Positions 19,918 to 44,734 of a stretch of 52,398 bases of DNA are shown here, in pieces (the stretch's first letter is position 1; each line of letters begins with the position of its first letter). Under the pieces are notes generated by a model. It had not been told where the DNA came from. It searched no databases and was given only the letters and a program-made list of their open reading frames with translations. This DNA is from Candidatus Heimdallarchaeota archaeon (GTDB lineage Archaea > Asgardarchaeota > Heimdallarchaeia > Hodarchaeales > Hodarchaeaceae), in assembly GCA_020351745.1 (NCBI GenBank), contig CP070665.1:910345-962742 (forward strand), read 5' to 3'. The position numbers and the translations under genes were made by a program.

Positions 19918-20076
19918 TGCCGAGGGTGCGATTTGAACGCACGACAACTGGATATCCATCACACAGATGAATCTGGGACTTCAGTCCAGCGCTGACGGGA
20001 ACCAATGCCATCATAAGATGGCTATCCTCCCGGGTTTCTCATTTGCTCATGAGAGCAAACTCTAAGCTACCTCGGC
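19918..20076 (-). tRNA. tRNA-Phe(GAA) with three introns (two in the D-arm region, one at 37/38)
   Basis: The reverse complement reads GCCGAGG TA GCTTAG[27 nt]CCCGGGA[34 nt]AGC G CTGGA CTGAAG[25 nt]A TCCAG TTGTC GTGCG TTCAAAT CGCAC CCTCGGC A. Arithmetic: 159-86 = 73 nt mature. The exact D-arm exon borders are ambiguous because short sequences repeat at the junctions. Confidence 0.8.
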
Positions 20077-20683: not shown

Positions 20684-20823
20684 TGCTCCGACCGGGATTT
20701 TCCGTACACAAACAACTTGTTTGTACATTTTGAACCCGGGTCTTTCCGCTTGGGATCAAGATCGAATTCAGCCAGATTCGGGGCGAAAGCCCGGAATGAT
20801 GGGCCGAGCTACACTATCGGAGC
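20684..20823 (-). tRNA. tRNA-Glu(TTC) with a 31-nt T-loop intron and a second ~34-nt insertion 3' of the anticodon
   Basis: The reverse complement reads GCTCCGA TA GTGTAGCTCGGCCCATCAT T CCGGG CTTTCGC CCCGA...[34 nt]...AGAC CCGGG TTCAAA[31 nt]T CCCGG TCGGAGC A. The D arm matches the archaeal tRNA-Glu consensus. The splice sites of the second insertion could not be placed unambiguously. Confidence 0.75.
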
Positions 20824-21397: not shown

Positions 21398-21724
21398 ATG
21401 TTTGTAGCGATTTATACAACTTTTGACAGCTTGAAGGAAGCAAAGGCCTTTGGTCATCTCTTGATTGAAAAAAAACTGGCAGCGTGTGTAAATTTAATTC
21501 ATGATGTTCATTCAATTTACCGTTGGAAAGGGAAAATCGAAGAGGCAACAGAAATAATCCTATGGTGCAAAACCCAAGATTCCTTGATCGAAGAGATCCA
21601 AGCCATGATCCAAGAGTCTCATCCATATGATCTACCAGCTTTTGTGGTTTATCCGATTCACTCAGGAAGCGAGGCTTATCTAAAATGGATAGCTGAAGAA
21701 ACCCAACCTCTAGACATCAACTGA
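21398..21724 (+). CDS. cutA: divalent-cation tolerance protein CutA
   Basis: MFVAIYTTFDSLKEAKAFGHLLIEKKLAACVNLIHDVHSIYRWKGKIEEATEIILWCKT...HPYDLPAFVVYPI is the canonical CutA1 pattern. The start is set at ATG 21398. Confidence 0.85.
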   Translation: MFVAIYTTFDSLKEAKAFGHLLIEKKLAACVNLIHDVHSIYRWKGKIEEATEIILWCKTQDSLIEEIQAMIQESHPYDLPAFVVYPIHSGSEAYLKWIAEETQPLDIN

Positions 21725-22765
21725 AACCTTAAATCGATTATTAATCTTCTCCGTATGAATTACAACTCCTAATATTTCTTGAATCAACCCAATATTTGTT
21801 TTAGTATGATTTGATAAATAAGAAGTGTAAAAAACACTAGGATTGCATGCTGTTGCCATGATAGGCAAAACTTGGTCTGCTAAAAATGGATCGACAGTAC
21901 TCTGACTGTTTAATGAAACGATATAACGTTCGTAGGCCTTTAGACCAACCTTTTCAGCAGATAACTTACGTTCACCAACAAAATCCCCGCTTAATATGCT
22001 ATTTCCCATTCTTGAGTATATTAATACCCCAGATCCTGGATTATTTGCATTTACATATTCACTTTTGATTTTTGATTCGATATTCTGTTTTAATAAAACG
22101 GATGCGATTGTTTTTGCTTGTCTTTCTGCAACTCGTGCTTTTTGAAGGTGTTTTGAAGCAATTGACAGAGTATTAACCAATTCTGGTCTTTGGAATATAT
22201 CAAGATTCAATCCTTTTGGACAGGAAGGAGACCTCATAATAGCTGAAACCCTTGCTCCTCCCTTCGGATAAAAACCGTGACGATTGATATTTAGTGTAAG
22301 TTCAAAATTCATTTGACGAAAGATTTCCCAAGTTACATGATTTATGTAAGGAATACTAGGTGCCCATTTTCCAAAAGTAGCTCCCCCCTGAAACTCGACT
22401 TTTAGTGTGTGATTCTTAATCCCAAGGATAGCCAGCTGAAGAGACTGTAAAATTAATCCCAAACTACCTGCCGTGGAAACATGAATTTTCAAATGAGATC
22501 TCCATGAATTTGCTGGAGTGAAAGAAATGGTTTTTGATCTAAGATAATCTCCTTCTAATTCACCTCCACAAAAATTAGCTAGTGCACGAACCCCTACAAG
22601 ATGTTGTGTTTGGAGCCCAGGTTTCGGACGATTTTTTCGGATATTCACAATTTTAACAGGTTCTTGTGTTACGAGAGCAAGAGATGTTACTAATCGAAGA
22701 ATAGATCCTCCTCCTTCTCCTAAACTTCCATCATAGACTTGCAAATAGTTACCTCTGATAAACAA
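21710..22765 (-). CDS. rtcA: RNA 3'-terminal phosphate cyclase family protein (Phe at the position of the expected His nucleophile)
   Basis: The N-terminus is DGSLGEGGGSILRL...IRKNRPKPGLQTQHL. The C-terminus is VDPFLADQVLP...SNHTKTNIGLIQEILG. TTG start. In the D-x-H-L-A-D-Q motif the His position is Phe (codon 21884-21886). Confidence 0.85.
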   Translation of the reverse strand: MFIRGNYLQVYDGSLGEGGGSILRLVTSLALVTQEPVKIVNIRKNRPKPGLQTQHLVGVRALANFCGGELEGDYLRSKTISFTPANSWRSHLKIHVSTAGSLGLILQSLQLAILGIKNHTLKVEFQGGATFGKWAPSIPYINHVTWEIFRQMNFELTLNINRHGFYPKGGARVSAIMRSPSCPKGLNLDIFQRPELVNTLSIASKHLQKARVAERQAKTIASVLLKQNIESKIKSEYVNANNPGSGVLIYSRMGNSILSGDFVGERKLSAEKVGLKAYERYIVSLNSQSTVDPFLADQVLPIMATACNPSVFYTSYLSNHTKTNIGLIQEILGVVIHTEKINNRFKVSVDV

Positions 22766-26217: not shown

Positions 26218-26290
26218 TGCGCCGACCGGGATTTGAACCCAGGTCACCTGTGTGGCAGACAGGAGTCTTACCAGGCTGGACTATCGGCGC
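26218..26290 (-). tRNA. tRNA-Gly(GCC), no intron
   Basis: The reverse complement reads GCGCCGA TA GTCC AGCCTGGTA AGAC T CCTGT CTGCCAC ACAGG TGAC CTGGG TTCAAAT CCCGG TCGGCGC A (73 nt). Confidence 0.92.
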
Positions 26291-27610: not shown

Positions 27611-27769
27611 GCGGGGGTAGCCAAGCCAGGTCAAAGGTGGCATTTATTGGGCTAGATGATAGCTTAGCATATCATAATAGCGCCGTCCAAAGGCGCTGGA
27701 CTTAAGATCGCTTTTCGATAAGCAATCCAGTCATATAGATGTACGTGGGTTCAAATCCCATCCCCCGCA
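27611..27769 (+). tRNA. tRNA-Leu(TAA), type II, with two introns (D loop ~56 nt; 37/38 ~18 nt)
   Basis: GCGGGGG TA GCCAAGCCAGGTC[56 nt]AAAGGCG CTGGA CTTAAG[atcgcttttcgataagca]A TCCAG TCATATAGATGTAC GTGGG TTCAAAT CCCAT CCCCCGC A. Arithmetic: 159-74 = 85 nt mature. The exon junction sequence is duplicated (GGTCAAAGG / GTCCAAAGG). Confidence 0.85.
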
Positions 27770-31983: not shown

Positions 31984-32091
31984 TGGCGCCCCGGTCGGGA
32001 TTTGAACCCGAGTCGGATGGGTTCAGCAGACTGTCAAACTTGACAAGGCTTTGACAGCCATCAATGCTAGACCAGACTACACCACCGGGGC
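31984..32091 (-). tRNA. tRNA-Asp(GTC) with a canonical 30-nt intron; CCA encoded
   Basis: The reverse complement reads GCCCCGG TG GTGTAGTCTGGTCTAGCAT T GATGG CTGTCA[30 nt]C CCATC CGAC TCGGG TTCAAAT CCCGA CCGGGGC G CCA. Confidence 0.9.
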
Positions 32092-32289: not shown

Positions 32290-32509
32290 GCTGGGGTGGC
32301 TTAAACGATGATAGTCTTATTATCGTGGCAAAGCCTGGTATAATAATATGTCTATAGTCAAAATGCCGATAGCGCGGGACTCATAATCTGAGAATGATTC
32401 TCACAACTTTATAAGGGCAAGATTCGCGCTTTCAGACGGGACATCCCGAAGTCGGGGGTTCGAAACTGGGTAAGTTGCGATTTACCCAACGAAAAGCCCC
32501 CCCCCAGCA
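32290..32509 (+). tRNA. elongator-type tRNA-Met(CAT) with four introns (29, 29, 57 and 31 nt)
   Basis: GCTGGGG TG GCT[29]A AGCCTGGTA[29]TAGC G CGGGA CTCATA[57]A TCCCG AAGTC GGGGG TTCGAA[31]G CCCCC CCCCAGC A. Arithmetic: 220-146 = 74 nt. The spliced product has perfect acceptor, D (GCTA/TAGC), anticodon (CGGGA/TCCCG) and T (GGGGG/CCCCC) stems. Confidence 0.8.
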
Positions 32510-32608
32510 TCTACTTAGATTTTCAATAAATATATATTCATATGTTAGCATCAGAGCTCAGTCATTATCAAAAACTACCTTAATTGAAGTCTAAAGCAAA
32601 TCTCTAGT

Positions 32609-32748
32609 GCTCCGATAGTGTAGCTTGGCCCATCATTCAGGGCTCTCAATGAGATCTACCATATAGGGGATTCTCAGGAGTTCCCCTGTGACCCGGGTTC
32701 AAAAGACACAAACAAGGTGTTTGTGTACGGAAAATCCCGGTCGGAGCA
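32609..32748 (+). tRNA. tRNA-Glu(CTC) with two introns (37/38, 34 nt; T loop 59/60, 31 nt)
   Basis: GCTCCGA TA GTGTAGCTTGGCCCATCAT T CAGGG CTCTCA[34]C CCCTG TGAC CCGGG TTCAAA[31]T CCCGG TCGGAGC A. Arithmetic: 140-65 = 75 nt. Confidence 0.87.
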
Positions 32749-34424: not shown

Positions 34425-34955
34425 TTACATTTTATCTAGGAGGTAATTGAGAATCGTAATCGTTTGGGAGCTTAAATATAAATGAGAACCTAAAGATAAT
34501 GTAGGTAACTTTGTAAATAAATGCCTGTCTTCCTCTAGAAATCCAACTTGGTCCCCAATTAAGAAAGAATCATGATCTTTGAGTAGATGAATAGAATAAT
34601 CTCCTGTGATATCAAAAACAACGATTTTCCGATTTTTAATAAAATTATCAAGATTTTCACTGTAAAACCTTATTCCTAAGAATTTACGGCCTTGAAAGAT
34701 TTTTTTCAAAAGTCCTGCAATTGCCCGTTCATCTGGATTTATCCCCCGTACTTTATCGCCTTGAATTTCTAGAATTTTCCCATTAATCCGGAAATAAACT
34801 TCAAAAATAACATCTTTCCTAAAATCATTTGAAAGAAAGAAAGCAGCGGTAATACAACGACATAATACATCCAATCGGCCGTATCCAGTCAATGAATTGA
34901 GAGAAAGAGGTTTGGAAGTATCTATGCTGTTTGATATTATTAAAAAACGCCTCAT
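34425..34955 (-). CDS. trmY: tRNA (pseudouridine54-N1)-methyltransferase TrmY-like SPOUT protein
   Basis: MRRFLIISNS...GYGRLDVLCRCITAAFFLSNDFRKDVIF...NPDERAIAGLLKK...FLIGDQVGFLEED...LSLGSHLYLSSQTITILNYLLD is collinear with the Mj1640/TrmY family as I recall it. Confidence 0.7.
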   Translation of the reverse strand: MRRFLIISNSIDTSKPLSLNSLTGYGRLDVLCRCITAAFFLSNDFRKDVIFEVYFRINGKILEIQGDKVRGINPDERAIAGLLKKIFQGRKFLGIRFYSENLDNFIKNRKIVVFDITGDYSIHLLKDHDSFLIGDQVGFLEEDRHLFTKLPTLSLGSHLYLSSQTITILNYLLDKM

Positions 34956-35188: not shown

Positions 35189-36544
35189 ATGGAATCATCA
35201 ATCCTTGGTAAGGTTAGCCAATTAGTCAGGGATATACATTGCTGCAACTCGTGTCTAGGTCGGCAATTTGGTAATCTATTATCAGGATTGTCGAATGCTA
35301 AACGAGGTGAAGCGCTGAAAATATTACTCCTAATGGATTGGGAAAATAATTATCGTTTATTAACAATAGATCCCCCAGACTCGTCATCTCTTCTATCTAA
35401 AGACTTTAATATTGGATCATTGTCAATTCAACGATTTTTTCCTGAAACTCAACCTGTTGACTTGCCTTGTGACATTTGTCAAGATGTCCTTTCTTCCCAT
35501 AAGCTGAAAACTTTGACAACAGATGCCCTCAAAGCGTTAGATGAATATGAATTTTCCACTTTTCTTGTGGGTAGTCAATTCCCTCCTTCTATAATAGATA
35601 AGGAAGATACTATTCGTGGCACCTATAATCTCGAGTTTGGAGAATCAATTAAGTCTGAATTTAATCGAGAAATCGGAAAACGATTGCAAGATCAAATTAA
35701 TTATGCTTTAGTAGAATTTAAAGCCCCAGACGTTGTTTTAACTTTTGATTTGATCAATGACCAAATAAAAATTAAAAGTAATCCCCTATTTATCTTGGGT
35801 AGGTATAGAAAATTCAAACGTGGAATTCCTCAATCCAAATGGTTTTGTCGAAAGTGTCACGGTAAAGGATGTAAATACTGTAATTTTTCAGGTAAGATGT
35901 ATCAAGAATCAGTAGAAGAATTCATATCAAAACCTATCCTATCAGCGGCTAAAGGTAGAGCTAGTAAGTTTCATGGTTCAGGACGAGAAGATATTGATGC
36001 ACGGATGTTAGGAAGTGGACGTCCATTTGTTCTTGAGATTTCTGAACCTAAGAAGAGAAATCTCAATTTTAAATTGCTAGAGAGAAAAATTAATGAAAAT
36101 GCAGCTGGAAAAGTGGAGATTGAAATTGAGGGATTAACAAACAGAACTAAAGTTAGAGAACTAAAGACACGATCTAGTAGGAACGCAAAAGGGTACCGGG
36201 TGATTATTTCTCTGAAAACTCCATTAAAATTAGGGGAATCAGAAAGTTTATCCATAGAAGACGAATTCTCTGACTTACTTATCCAACAGCGGACTCCATT
36301 ACGAGTAGCTCACAGACGAGCTGATAAAGTTAGATCAAGAAGAATTAATTCATTTCGAATTGAGAAGATAGAACCACATCAATTGACAGTCTATATAGTT
36401 TGTGAAGGAGGACTATATGTAAAAGAACTAATCAGTGGAGATGAGGGGAGAACCCAACCAAACCTCTCTGAACGTCTTAACATTACTGCAGAAGTTACAC
36501 AACTCGATGTCATTGAAGTTTTTGATGATAAAAACTCCCTATAA
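35189..36544 (+). CDS. pus10: tRNA pseudouridine synthase Pus10
   Basis: Has the N-terminal zinc module CCNSCLGRQF...CDICQD, a THUMP-like region, an internal CRKCHGKGCKYC, and the catalytic region GSGREDIDARMLGSGRPFVLE. Transcribed divergently from trmY. Confidence 0.82.
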   Translation: MESSILGKVSQLVRDIHCCNSCLGRQFGNLLSGLSNAKRGEALKILLLMDWENNYRLLTIDPPDSSSLLSKDFNIGSLSIQRFFPETQPVDLPCDICQDVLSSHKLKTLTTDALKALDEYEFSTFLVGSQFPPSIIDKEDTIRGTYNLEFGESIKSEFNREIGKRLQDQINYALVEFKAPDVVLTFDLINDQIKIKSNPLFILGRYRKFKRGIPQSKWFCRKCHGKGCKYCNFSGKMYQESVEEFISKPILSAAKGRASKFHGSGREDIDARMLGSGRPFVLEISEPKKRNLNFKLLERKINENAAGKVEIEIEGLTNRTKVRELKTRSSRNAKGYRVIISLKTPLKLGESESLSIEDEFSDLLIQQRTPLRVAHRRADKVRSRRINSFRIEKIEPHQLTVYIVCEGGLYVKELISGDEGRTQPNLSERLNITAEVTQLDVIEVFDDKNSL

Positions 36545-41326: not shown

Positions 41327-44300
41327 TTGACATCGAAAGTCCAAATAGGTAAAATTGTAAGAATTTCTGGCCCTGTAGTGGAAATTAGTGGCATGAATCG
41401 TGCTCAACTTTATGAAATCGTTAGAGTTGGCGAAGAACAGTTAATTGGAGAGATTATCCGAATAAATCAATCTGGAGATAGACACATCTCAACTGTTCAA
41501 GTTTATGAAGAGACTACGGGTTTAAAACCTAGGGAGGAAGCAATAGCAACGGGGAAACCTCTAAGCGTTGAGCTCGGGCCAGGGTTAATAACCCGAATTT
41601 ATGATGGTATTCAGCGACCTCTACCAGCTCTCCAATTAGAAGAAGGTGATTTCATTACTCGTGGTCTCACATCTGCCCCGTTAGACCTGGATAAAAAATG
41701 GGATTTTAAACCATTAGTAACTAAAGGAGATACAATCAATGGGGGTTCGCATATTGGAGAAGTACGAGAATCTAGAATGGTAAATCACAAAATAATGATT
41801 CCTCCTGATATAGATATTGCAAAAGTTACTAATATCGCCACTCCTGATAAGTATTCAATATCAGAGACAATTGCCAAAATAGATGTAAAAGGGCTTTATA
41901 CTTCTGTACCAATCACAATGAAGCAAACATGGCCAGTTAGAAATGCACGTCCATTTAAAAGGAAACTGGAAGCAAATATTCCATTAATCACGGGCCAACG
42001 TATATATGACACTTTTTTTCCAATTGCCAAAGGAGGGGTGGCTGCCATACCAGGAGGATTTGGGACAGGGAAGTGTGTAACAGGTGATACGCCTGTTCTT
42101 TTAGAATCGGGTGATAGTATCCCGATCAAGCAAATTTATGATTATCATATGAAGAATAATGGCATTATCGAGGAAGATTCAGAAAATGAAACATTAATTC
42201 GTCTGAAAAATCCCTTATCAGTGATATCATTTAACGGAACAAAATACAGCTCACAGAAAGCCACTCACGTTTATCGTGGAAAAACAAATTCTATTGTAAA
42301 AATTAAAACAAGAAGTGGAAGGGTTGTTGAAATCACTCCTATCCATAAACTCTTCAAGTTCAATGGTGAATCCATTGAGGAAACAGCAGCAAAAGATCTA
42401 AAAATTGGAGACAATCTCATTGTTCCTCGAAAGATAAGCATCGAGGGTGAAGAAACAAAATTCCATTGTTATGATGTTGATCTCTCTCTACGAGTAATTG
42501 ATCAGCAAGCATTGCAACAAATGATAAGCTTAATCAAATACCTTAAGCAAACAATGACCTTAAAGCAAATAGCTGTAAAATTAAATGTTTCTTATGATGT
42601 TTTCATTGGATACTGGTTGCTTAAAAATAAACCTACCCTGAACTTCTTAAAGAACCTTGCTAAATTAGCAAAGGCTCCCTTAATACCTGTAAAACTTGTA
42701 AAATCAGAGCGTCAATCAGATCCGTTTCAGATACCCAATTCATTCACAAAAGAATTAGCTGAATGGTTAGGGCTTTTTGTAGCTGATGGTCATATTAAAG
42801 GTAAAAAAGGAGGAATTTATCTATATAATAATAACAACCAAATTCTTCAGCGATTCACTATTTTAACTGAAATTATCTTTGACATAGATGTTGAAATCGG
42901 TCAAGACGATTCAGAAAGGACTCCCTACGCGTGTATACGAAACGAGTCGCTTAAAAAATTCCTTTATTATCTCGGAATTCCAAAAGAGAAGAAAACATAC
43001 AATGTGAGGATACCTCAAGTAATCCGAAAGGGTTCAGATGACTTATTAGTACATTTCCTTGTAGGATATTTTGCAGGAGATGGATCTTTTTATCGTTATA
43101 CAGTCGAATTTAGTACTGTTAGTAAGAACCTCTTTAGTGATTTAGGATATTTATTAACACGTCTAGGTCTTATTTATAGAGCAAAGAAAAAAGGAAACTC
43201 CTTTATTTATCACCTTGACGGAAAAGAGGCTGAGATCCTTGCAGGAATATTTAAATTGACTGATGTTCATCAATACAACAAATTAAACCCACTCTATTCA
43301 TATGCTGCAAAGAATACACAGCATTTCATTGGTCGTGACGTTGTACCAATAGGTAATCAAGTTCTGGTTCGATTACACCATGAAGTTAAAGAAAATGCTG
43401 GTTATGACATACTTCGACAGAATAAAGGCATTCGATTGAGTAATTACATTAAGAAAGGGCAAATTCCTACGCTTTCAACCTTACAACAAATTTCAAATAC
43501 TTTAGAGGAACATCAAATTAATATCCCAACAAATAAAACTCTTGATGCTGTTATCCGCCTTTCACAAGAAGTTTTTTTTGACAAAATAATATCAATCGAA
43601 CTCATCGAAGAAACAACACCTGTTTATGATCTTACTGTTGATATAACACACAATTTTGTTGGTGGAATACTACCTTTCACACTACACAATACTGTGTCTC
43701 AGCATCAATTAGCCAAATGGTCTGATGCAACTGTGGTTGTTTACGTCGGTTGTGGGGAACGTGGTAACGAGATGGCCGAGGTTTTGAAGGATTTCCCAGA
43801 TCTGGAAGACCCACGATCTGGGGAAAAGCTAATGCAACGCACTGTTCTTATTGCAAACACCTCTAATATGCCTGTCGCGGCACGAGAAGCGTCAATATAC
43901 TTGGGTATTACTATTGCTGAATATTATCGCGATATGGGGTATGATGTTGCTTTAATGGCGGATTCAACAAGTCGTTGGGCTGAAGCTCTACGAGAAATTT
44001 CAGGTCGTTTGGAGGAAATGCCTGGAGAAGAAGGTTACCCAGCCTATCTTGCGTCCAGAATAGCAGAATTTTATGAACGGGCTGGGAGAGTTGAAACACT
44101 TTCTAGTCACAAGGCCAGTATATCCGCCATCGGAGCAGTCTCTCCTGGAGGAGGAGATTTCTCAGAACCAGTGACTCAAAATACCCTGAAAACAGTAAGA
44201 GTCTTCTGGGCATTAAGCTATCCATTAGCACGCTCCAGACATTTTCCTGCAATCTCTTGGTTGGAGAGTTATAGCCTTTATATTGATTCATTAACCGATT

Positions 44301-44734
44301 GGTATCATGAAAACATTGCACCAGACTTTAACATGCGCAGAGAAGAGGCAATGGCACTTCTCCAGAAAGAAAAGGAATTACAAGAGATTGTACAGTTGAT
44401 AGGTCCCGACGCATTACCTGAATCAGAGAAAATCATCCTTCAGGCTGCTAAAATGATTCGGGAAGATTTTCTCCAGCAAAGCGCTTATTCTGATGACTCT
44501 TATTGTGCTCTAGATAAGCAGTACAAAATGCTCTACATAATCATGCAATTTTATCATAAGATGCGTGAAAACCATAATGCAGGAGTTCCTCTTGAAAAAA
44601 TGACTTCTCTTCCCGTTTTATCTGATATAGCTAGTCTAAAATGGGCTTTTGACGAGGAATTCAATGGATTATATGAAAAATGCTTAGGTTTTGTTCAAAA
44701 TGAGATGAAACCAAGTGATTTTGGGATTGCGTGA
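41327..44734 (+). CDS. atpA: A-type (A1A0/V-type) ATP synthase catalytic subunit A, interrupted by an intein
   Basis: The exteins read ...[10 protein letters not shown]|[32 protein letters not shown]...[36 protein letters not shown]..., which is canonical subunit A (596 aa after splicing). TTG start. No other atp genes lie in the window. Confidence 0.9.
42074..43690 (+). mobile_element. intein (539 aa) with a LAGLIDADG homing-endonuclease domain, inserted in the P-loop of AtpA
   Basis: It begins [10 protein letters not shown] (block A), has TPIH (block B) and two LAGLIDADG motifs ([10 protein letters not shown] and [12 protein letters not shown]), and ends FTLHN followed by Thr. Removing it restores the GTGKT Walker A. 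Confidence 0.88.

Follow-up and report, generated by a model that had tools for sequence, protein, structure and literature searches.

The window analysed here, a stretch of 52,398 nucleotides with a G+C content of 36%, is archaeal and codes for SRP54, Pus10, RtcA and an A-ATPase A subunit bearing an intein. Comparison of its SRP54 with a protein collection gave a top identity of 95%, and the best matches were MAGs labelled Hodarchaeota, Hodarchaeales or Promethearchaeota; judged by these matches, the host is a Hodarchaeales-like Asgard archaeon. The window contains at least 11 tRNA genes, two of which are detected by ARAGORN and five by Rfam. The genes for tRNA-Met(CAT), tRNA-Glu(CTC) and tRNA-Glu(TTC) went unrecognised by both programs in their unspliced form, the practical lesson being that tRNA genes with T-loop introns escape standard tRNA finders altogether. 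The features considered below, with introns as predicted, are the following.

32290..32509, + strand: tRNA-Met(CAT) gene, five exons and four introns; spliced product called Met(cat) by ARAGORN, 74 nt
32304..32332, + strand: Met intron 1, 29 nt, D-loop (about 14/15); boundaries ± 1-2 nt; without counterpart in L011
32342..32370, + strand: Met intron 2, 29 nt, junction of D-loop and D-stem (about 21/22); boundaries ± 1-2 nt; missing in L011 and L013
32387..32443, + strand: Met intron 3, 57 nt, anticodon loop (canonical region); kept in all orthologues
32454..32464, + strand: Met T-stem 5' strand GGGGG and T-loop bases 54-59, TTCGAA
32465..32495, + strand: Met T-loop intron, 31 nt, position 59/60; missing in the L011, L013 and L016 orthologues
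32496..32501, + strand: Met G60 (third base of the 3' bulge) and T-stem 3' strand CCCCC
32609..32748, + strand: tRNA-Glu(CTC) gene, three exons and two introns; spliced product of 75 nt called Glu(ctc) by ARAGORN
32650..32683, + strand: Glu(CTC) intron adjoining the anticodon, 34 nt; ARAGORN i(41,34)
32704..32734, + strand: Glu(CTC) T-loop intron, 31 nt, position 59/60; found in all relatives
20684..20823, - strand: tRNA-Glu(TTC) gene, three exons and two introns; spliced product of 75 nt called Glu(ttc) by ARAGORN
20744..20777, - strand: Glu(TTC) non-canonical intron, 34 nt, about 43/44 (anticodon stem/variable region)
20698..20728, - strand: Glu(TTC) T-loop intron, 31 nt, position 59/60; 4 differences from the Glu(CTC) copy
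31987..32091, - strand: tRNA-Asp(GTC), T-loop intact; orthologues in MAG8 (L030), L048 and L049 have a Glu-family T-loop intron
27611..27769, + strand: tRNA-Leu(UAA)-like gene, T-loop intact; 33-nt T-loop intron in the orthologues of L001 and DZ3S.51
26218..26290, - strand: tRNA-Gly(GCC), without introns; the L011 orthologue has a 32-nt T-loop intron

To compare these genes with their orthologues, syntenic loci were reached via SRP54 relatives, in lineages spanning 95% to 72% SRP54 identity, and both the Met and Glu exons and the gene order were found to be conserved. The first-pass annotation of this DNA had assigned the three genes to Met, Glu(CTC) and Glu(TTC), which the fully spliced sequences bear out, and had described the Met gene with one intron, a number that we correct to four (29, 29, 57 and 31 nt). 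According to ARAGORN on the spliced sequence, a valid Met tRNA requires excision of introns 1 and 2 as well. The Met exon frame is anchored by the single-intron orthologue of L011, which ARAGORN calls directly and in which a 56-nt intron is the counterpart of intron 3. Judged by its anticodon, the tRNA-Met(CAT) is the elongator Met or possibly Ile2. When the T-loop insert was removed from the Glu(CTC) gene, ARAGORN called a tRNA-Glu(ctc) with a 34-nt intron. The exon frame of Glu(TTC) was set by the intron-poor orthologue of L037, and its second intron was placed with the Glu(TTC) orthologue of H. mangrovi, which has no second intron; placement by brute-force excision was abandoned, ARAGORN tolerating nearly any excision 3' of the anticodon.

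All three genes carry an insert of 31 nt at one T-loop position, in each case between TTCRAA and base 60, as the first-pass annotation had it. The structure that we propose for this site is an archaeal bulge-helix-bulge (BHB) motif, in which the 5-bp T-stem would form the outer helix, the exon bases U54-U55-C56-R57 would pair with insert positions -3 to -6 (A-A-G-Y) in a central helix of 4 bp, and the insert's own hairpin of 7-10 bp would provide the inner helix. One 3-nt bulge would consist of A58-A59 and the first base of the insert, and the second, on the opposite strand, of insert bases -2 and -1 and base 60. A splicing endonuclease would then cleave between the second and third bases of each bulge, that is at 59|60, and ligation would restore a T-loop of 7 nt. 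Cuts made in silico at these bulges restore canonical tRNAs with a 7-nt T-loop in all three genes (ARAGORN). Cleavage by EndA in vivo, and with it excision of the introns, is predicted from this motif; no gene for the endonuclease lies within the 52-kb window.

The suggested mapping of a BHB to 59/60 holds in that the two 3-nt bulges and the 4-bp helix can be formed by every T-arm and insert. For the first 16 T-arm/insert sequences the BHB form lies within 0-1.5 kcal/mol of the minimum free energy (MFE), the exception being the Met sequence of L006 at 3.7, and for the Leu sequence of L001 the two are equal. Since the unconstrained MFE structure usually extends or shifts the helices and for most sequences differs from the BHB fold, the MFE alone is no test of the motif. 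The Met motif is strict: the central helix is UUCG/CGAA and the bulges are AA|A and AA|G. Its insert reads A, C, a hairpin of 7-9 bp (TGGGTAA(G)...(T)TTACCCA), A, CGAA and AA, where CGAA pairs with U54-G57, the terminal AA belongs to the bulge, TTCG is the exon strand of the central helix and A58-A59 lie within the 5' bulge. The motif of the window's Glu genes is relaxed, with three Watson-Crick pairs and an A-G mismatch as the fourth central pair; the Glu(CTC) insert reads AG, a 9-bp hairpin ACACAAACA/TGTTTGTGT, AC, GGAA and AA, with GAA paired to U54-C56 and the G opposite A57. Relatives with a TGAA tail have a canonical fourth central pair and thus four pairs in all. By sequence, splicing of the Glu genes anywhere from 56/57 to 59/60 would give equivalent products, and 59/60 is assigned because the BHB geometry selects that position.

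The motif is also supported by covariation. On a gapless alignment of 22 sequences (A3), 95.5% of the cells were paired, compared with 81.3 ± 1.8 in shuffles, none of 500 of which reached the observed value, and controls with slid partners had at most 74% of cells paired. The flanking T-stem helix was paired in 100% of cells, with covariation. Four pairs show double-sided changes on A3, among them 57:-6 (A-U n=8, G-C n=5), and in the Met lineage this pair switches between G:C and A:U at least two times on the SRP54 tree. The shared recognition module that had been suggested for the three inserts can be identified as the BHB motif, supported by its fold and by covariation with exon base 57. When the window was searched with filters disabled, a covariance model built from T-arm and insert returned exactly three sites (54-58 bits). 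As these three were among the training members, the search is informative only on the absence of a fourth site, and none was found in the window: the next hits, at no more than 17 bits, were intact T-arms of seven other tRNA genes.

To learn which properties belong to T-loop inserts in general, we searched collections of genomes and metagenomes with gene-specific exon anchors; an all-tRNA pattern with 14-16 specified bases was estimated to give thousands of chance hits. The Glu genome scan fixed only the exon sequence and left the insert free (32 hits), the exon-anchored metagenome scan for Asp was likewise free in the insert (8 hits), and a split-T-arm scan over 551 kb required only complementarity of the T-stem and the acceptor stem. 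The last of these located T-loop inserts of Heimdallarchaeia in Met, Glu, Leu, Pro, Gly, Asp, Lys and Ser-like tRNAs, as well as inserts in Micrarchaeota and two other bins. We tabulated 59 distinct inserts of the T-loop, drawn from several phyla and many kinds of tRNA: G stands at -5 in 59/59 and A at -4, -3 and -2 in 57-58, and the last base is variable. This tail recurs in unrelated tRNAs and in distant archaea, Micrarchaeota among them, also for inserts from the scan with only the exon fixed. The base at -6 follows exon base 57: C occurs solely with G57 (8 of 10 G57 cases, the remaining two being G-U), and of the 49 inserts next to A57, 32 have T, 17 have G (all from one Glu lineage) and none has C. 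The first-pass annotation had all three inserts beginning with A, which is true of these three and does not extend to the class (A 27, T 21 and G 11 of 59). It had also given their common end as ACG(G)AAAA, which would make one G an insertion; read back from the 3' splice site, the tail is instead A|CGAA|AA in Met and C|GGAA|AA in Glu.

Because the exon partner TTCR is near-universal in tRNAs, every intron at 59/60 is bound to have YGAA at its end, followed by the two bases of the bulge. The tail is thus imposed by exon pairing, and shared ends reflect a constraint of position and are no evidence of homology. As for size, inserts of Heimdallarchaeia are 29-33 nt long with a mode of 31 nt (31 of 49), so that an equal length of 31 nt is to be expected. 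On these counts the look-alike ends of the Met and Glu inserts read as a property of the class.

A common origin of the Met and Glu inserts had been proposed from their shared ends, architecture and length. This was not borne out, as the similarity of the cores is at background. With the 6-nt tail removed, alignment of the Met and Glu cores scores -9 and -6, which places them at the 35th percentile among pairs of inserts from different tRNAs; in the 5' halves, 3-4 of 12 bases agree, the background mean being 4.2; and the ends and length of the two are no more alike than among the 59/60 inserts of unrelated tRNAs. Thus, although the two families occupy the same position and the Met insert varies in presence among relatives, as in a transposed group, they show no similarity beyond the splice motif. 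The clade to which the window belongs and neighbouring lineages (L001, L003, L006, L009, L018, L022, L045 and bin272) carry the Met insert, which is missing from the orthologues of three deeper lineages, L011, L013 and L016; in SZ4, another Heimdall lineage, the Met T-loop holds a different insert of 33 nt. The check for the insert in related lineages, which had been suggested, thus finds the Met insert absent from some; the Glu(CTC) insert occurs in all relatives.

The alternative that survives best is that the Met and Glu introns are nevertheless homologous, one having been copied from the other by transposition or gene conversion, after which the hairpin diverged and selection kept the ends and the length. 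Position and length are indeed identical, the clade with the Met insert had the Glu insert beforehand, which makes a gain from a resident donor possible, transfer between families is known in the group (Glu/Asp, below), and a T-loop intron is intrinsically portable given its universal exon partner. Insert hairpins also change fast: orthologous Pro inserts at 88% SRP54 identity have little in common beyond their ends, so that an old Met-Glu transfer followed by divergence is compatible with the lack of similarity. Nevertheless, we regard this homology as unlikely. Outside the constrained tail the similarity does not exceed background, the ends and the length are accounted for without homology, and the two hairpins lie in different registers, offset by one column. 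Furthermore, the Met hairpin core was confined to Met genes in the 551 kb scanned, and the hairpin GGTAA...TTACC is well conserved throughout its clade, which speaks against very rapid early divergence. The Met intron is accordingly placed, by sequence comparison, in a separate lineage of the 59/60 class. We assign a probability of roughly 0.85 to the reading that the three inserts are archaeal BHB introns at 59/60, that their ends are set by position and that the Met intron represents a lineage of its own.

The two Glu inserts present a different case. They had been described as near-identical, and they differ at 4 of 31 positions; a 27-nt pattern derived from them matched only these two sites in the window (chance expectation 0). 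We compared the inserts in all 8 genomes having 31-nt inserts in both isoacceptors, and in 8/8 the CTC insert is nearest, or tied nearest, to the TTC insert of its own genome, with a mean of 2.5 differences within genomes and 9.3-10.0 between genomes. H. mangrovi shows the same likeness of CTC and TTC, yet with a completely different hairpin. The likeness of the two Glu inserts is thus due to concerted evolution of paralogues, and gene conversion between the identical 3' halves of the isoacceptor genes would be a mechanism able to keep the copies alike. The other introns of these genes lie at distinct positions, that of CTC adjoining the anticodon and that of TTC at about 43/44, and the two 34-nt sequences are unrelated (24/34 positions differ). 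Since these introns are unrelated and differently placed, homogenisation is limited to the shared 3' half.

Evidence for sharing across amino-acid families comes from tRNA-Asp. The Asp(GTC) genes of ten lineages, the window and the sister of MAG8 among them, have an intact T-loop, and inserts of 29-30 nt were found in three Heimdall-type Asp genes only, those of MAG8/L030, L048 and L049, the latter two being metagenomic. As tested by a fixed-register comparison of 5' halves against an empirical background, all three Asp inserts agree with one or another Glu insert at 10/12 bases; the maximum among 606 other cross-family pairs was 8/12, and none of 5000 shuffles reached the observed total. The Glu(TTC) insert of the window is a best match for two of the three. 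This test replaced a global alignment of whole cores, which was suggestive only (1 of 200 shuffles scored higher) and in which hairpin symmetry inflates the scores. Glu and Asp thus combine similarity beyond the splice motif with presence restricted to certain lineages in the recipient, as expected of a transposed group, and by their sequences T-loop introns are shared between these two families. A single transfer may underlie all three Asp genes. Because the T-arms of Asp and Glu are one base pair apart, short-tract conversion via the T-arm would be a plausible route.

Presence of T-loop introns differs even between genomes merely 5% apart in SRP54. The Pro insert was found in clade B only, the Gly insert in L011 only and the Leu insert in L001 and DZ3S.51 only. 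The Leu(UAA) insert of L001, absent from the window and four lineages, was considered as a recent gain, and this was rejected on finding it also in DZ3S.51, of another clade; the history of the Leu insert comprises at least three events, and the direction of change is not polarisable. Base G57 goes along with the Leu insert, as it does with the Met insert. The Pro insert of L006 was likewise rejected as an orthologue of the window's Pro gene, lying on the opposite strand with a different D-loop, and counts as a member of the class only. The earlier suggestion that introns spread between tRNA genes is consequently upheld for the lineage, in which gain, loss and transfer (Glu/Asp) are seen, and not for the Met/Glu pair on which it was based.

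These observations raise the wider idea, which we hold tentatively and at somewhat less than even odds, that the T-loop introns of Heimdallarchaeia are a self-contained portable cassette that spreads between tRNA genes with rapid turnover. Because the exon half GTTCRAA is universally conserved, a copy would be spliceable at once in any tRNA T-loop, and its spread might proceed via the conserved T-arm, by gene conversion of short tracts, or take some other route of transposition. If this is true, one process would account for the uniform size of about 31 nt, the sharing from Glu to Asp and the homogenisation of the Glu paralogues, as well as for the patchy inserts in Met, Leu, Pro, Gly, Lys and Ser-like tRNAs, and the Met intron would be an old, diverged copy.

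Two further explanations deny that the inserts are introns. They could stay in the RNA as retained expansions of the T-loop, or the genes could be decaying pseudogenes, as the failure of ARAGORN and Rfam to recognise the unspliced genes might suggest. A 31-nt insertion in the T-loop would, however, abolish the interaction of the T-loop with the D-loop, and we consider this explanation very improbable: the exons show little or no variation among relatives while compensatory changes accompany the drift of the inserts, synteny is kept, the insert ends covary with exon base 57 as a splicing motif demands, and ARAGORN, Rfam and the covariance model found no other Met(CAT) or Glu tRNA genes in the window. 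Least probable of all is that the inserts go back to a mobile element, as its remnants or footprints, or to an integrase target site, without any link to splicing, since, despite their patchy presence in close relatives and the frequent targeting of 3' parts of tRNA genes by archaeal integrative elements, they measure merely 29-33 nt, have no terminal repeats beyond what the BHB requires, occupy one exact nucleotide position in every gene, always form the splice motif with the exon, and have flanks free of integrase or element genes in the window and the syntenic loci.

In sum, the inserts are BHB introns of the ordinary kind: their position, though non-canonical, is a known one, and the host lineage is new. 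For BHB introns in general, the shared ends are set by the exon and only similarity of the interior can serve as an argument for homology; an attractive but misleading inference of common origin is corrected in this way. The present data document T-loop introns across many tRNA species of Hodarchaeales-like Asgard archaea, debated close relatives of eukaryotes, and T-arm minihelices offer concrete substrates for probing the specificity of the Asgard splicing endonuclease. Moreover, the sharing between Glu and Asp extends intron transposition from Thermoproteales to a second, distant lineage.

Introns at 59/60 have reportedly been described in tRNAs of Thermoproteales, by Marck and Grosjean in 2003 and by Sugahara and co-workers in 2008. 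They are documented in pre-tRNA-Cys(GCA) and pre-tRNA-Pro(GGG) of Micrarchaeum/ARMAN-2, and the ARMAN-2 endonuclease has been shown to cut one such intron in vitro (PMC3239211). The junction of the permuted tRNAs of Thermofilum pendens and C. merolae is at 59/60 too (PMC3218864). The introns described here share with the known ones the nucleotide position, the T-stem as outer helix, the 3-nt bulges and the central helix of 4 bp, and our exon-anchored genome scan recovered Micrarchaeota Glu T-loop inserts with a tail of the TGAA type. They differ in their host, Hodarchaeales/Heimdallarchaeia, in which several tRNA species carry inserts, and in their uniform length of 29-33 nt, the Cys intron of ARMAN-2 having 13 nt and a relaxed hBH motif. 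An (alpha-beta)2 EndA with a broad-specificity L1 loop has been predicted for Asgard archaea (PMC5829648), and by analogy with these other Asgard archaea an EndA able to cut outside the anticodon loop is predicted for the present genome.

Our literature search found no paper on tRNA introns of Hodarchaeales or Heimdallarchaeia. For other Asgard classes, the tRNA genes of Atabeyarchaeia and Freyarchaeia are described, in the part of the paper available to us, as intron-rich with many non-canonical positions (PMC11291895); multiple introns per gene at non-canonical sites are found here as well, the Met gene of the window having four, whereas T-loop introns, sequence families and turnover are not analysed in that part. 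Transposition of tRNA introns was proposed for Thermoproteales (Fujishima 2010, as reported in PMC4090602 and PMC4033280). To the extent that this work is described there, Glu and Asp fit its pattern of similar introns at one position in different families with patchy presence; in contrast to it, our case concerns an Asgard lineage, the Met/Glu pair does not conform, about 0.55 Mb was surveyed, and Glu(CTC) and Glu(TTC) resemble each other as paralogues under ordinary concerted evolution do. Finally, by established BHB geometry the T-loop introns would have the same layout as the canonical intron at 37/38: a 5-bp stem with a 7-nt loop, a 5' cut 6 nt past the stem, a 3' cut 1 nt ahead of the stem, and pairing of loop bases 1-4 with the 3' part of the intron. 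The difference is the site in the T-arm, where the partner TTCR is near-invariant whereas anticodon loops are variable, and because of this nearly invariant partner a T-loop intron needs no tailoring to its host gene.

We found several introns in two class-II tRNA genes of the window, for neither of which ARAGORN or Rfam gave a call in the window search:
27611-27769, plus strand: Leu(UAA)-like class-II tRNA gene, 159 nt, several introns
19918-20076, minus strand: Ser-like class-II tRNA gene, 159 nt, several introns
Both have an intact T-loop. T-loop inserts, intron-like inserts at position 59/60, are present in the orthologues of the Leu(UAA)-like gene in L001 (a compared locus) and DZ3S.51 (a further relative, from another clade than L001), and in the orthologue of the Ser-like gene in H. 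mangrovi (L037). Furthermore, tRNA-Glu(TTC) contains a second intron, which most Hodarchaeales have kept; in H. mangrovi it is missing, and the gene has an intron in the D-loop instead. About 900 nt separate tRNA-Glu(TTC) from the gene encoding RtcA, and the neighbourhood is alike in the compared loci L006 and L009:
20744-20777, minus strand: second intron of tRNA-Glu(TTC), at a non-canonical site close to 43/44, in the anticodon stem / variable region
21710-22765, minus strand: RtcA, RNA 3'-phosphate cyclase

The SRP54 gene, used to reach the syntenic loci in relatives, and the tRNA cluster are adjoined by two genes for RNA-modifying enzymes:
34425-34955, minus strand, and 35189-36544, plus strand: Pus10 and PF04013 RNA methyltransferase
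This layout is kept in every relative compared. Both families target T-loop positions 54/55, and the proximity of their genes to the T-loop introns is probably a coincidence.

The gene for the A-type ATPase A subunit contains an intein:
41327-44734, plus strand: A-type ATPase A subunit of 1135 aa, with an intein carrying a LAGLIDADG domain
The intein was found in L003 as well, and the subunits of L006 and L009 (594-597 aa) are devoid of it.

The region is otherwise syntenic, with insertions setting the relatives apart:
L009, 1117-1866: IS605 OrfB/TnpB-like gene adjoining atpA
L013, 3660-5543: 627-aa ORF without a Pfam match, in the interval between SRP54 and the tRNA cluster
The intein was found in L003 as well, and the subunits of L006 and L009 (594-597 aa) are devoid of it.

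T-loop inserts of 19-33 nt also occur on L023 (CAZENX010000017.1), from a bin labelled Methanosarcinales, in four tRNA genes that lie within 8 kb. As this would be unusual for Methanosarcinales, the label may be wrong.

tRNA-Met(CAT) contains introns in the D-loop (29 nt), D-arm (29 nt), anticodon loop (57 nt) and T-loop (31 nt):
32290-32509, plus strand: tRNA-Met(CAT) gene, four introns
Comparison of orthologues revealed two introns in L013 and one in L011. Since the counts are four, two and one, introns of this gene accumulated or were lost step by step. The maximum per archaeal tRNA gene was given as three in a 2011 paper (PMC3239211).
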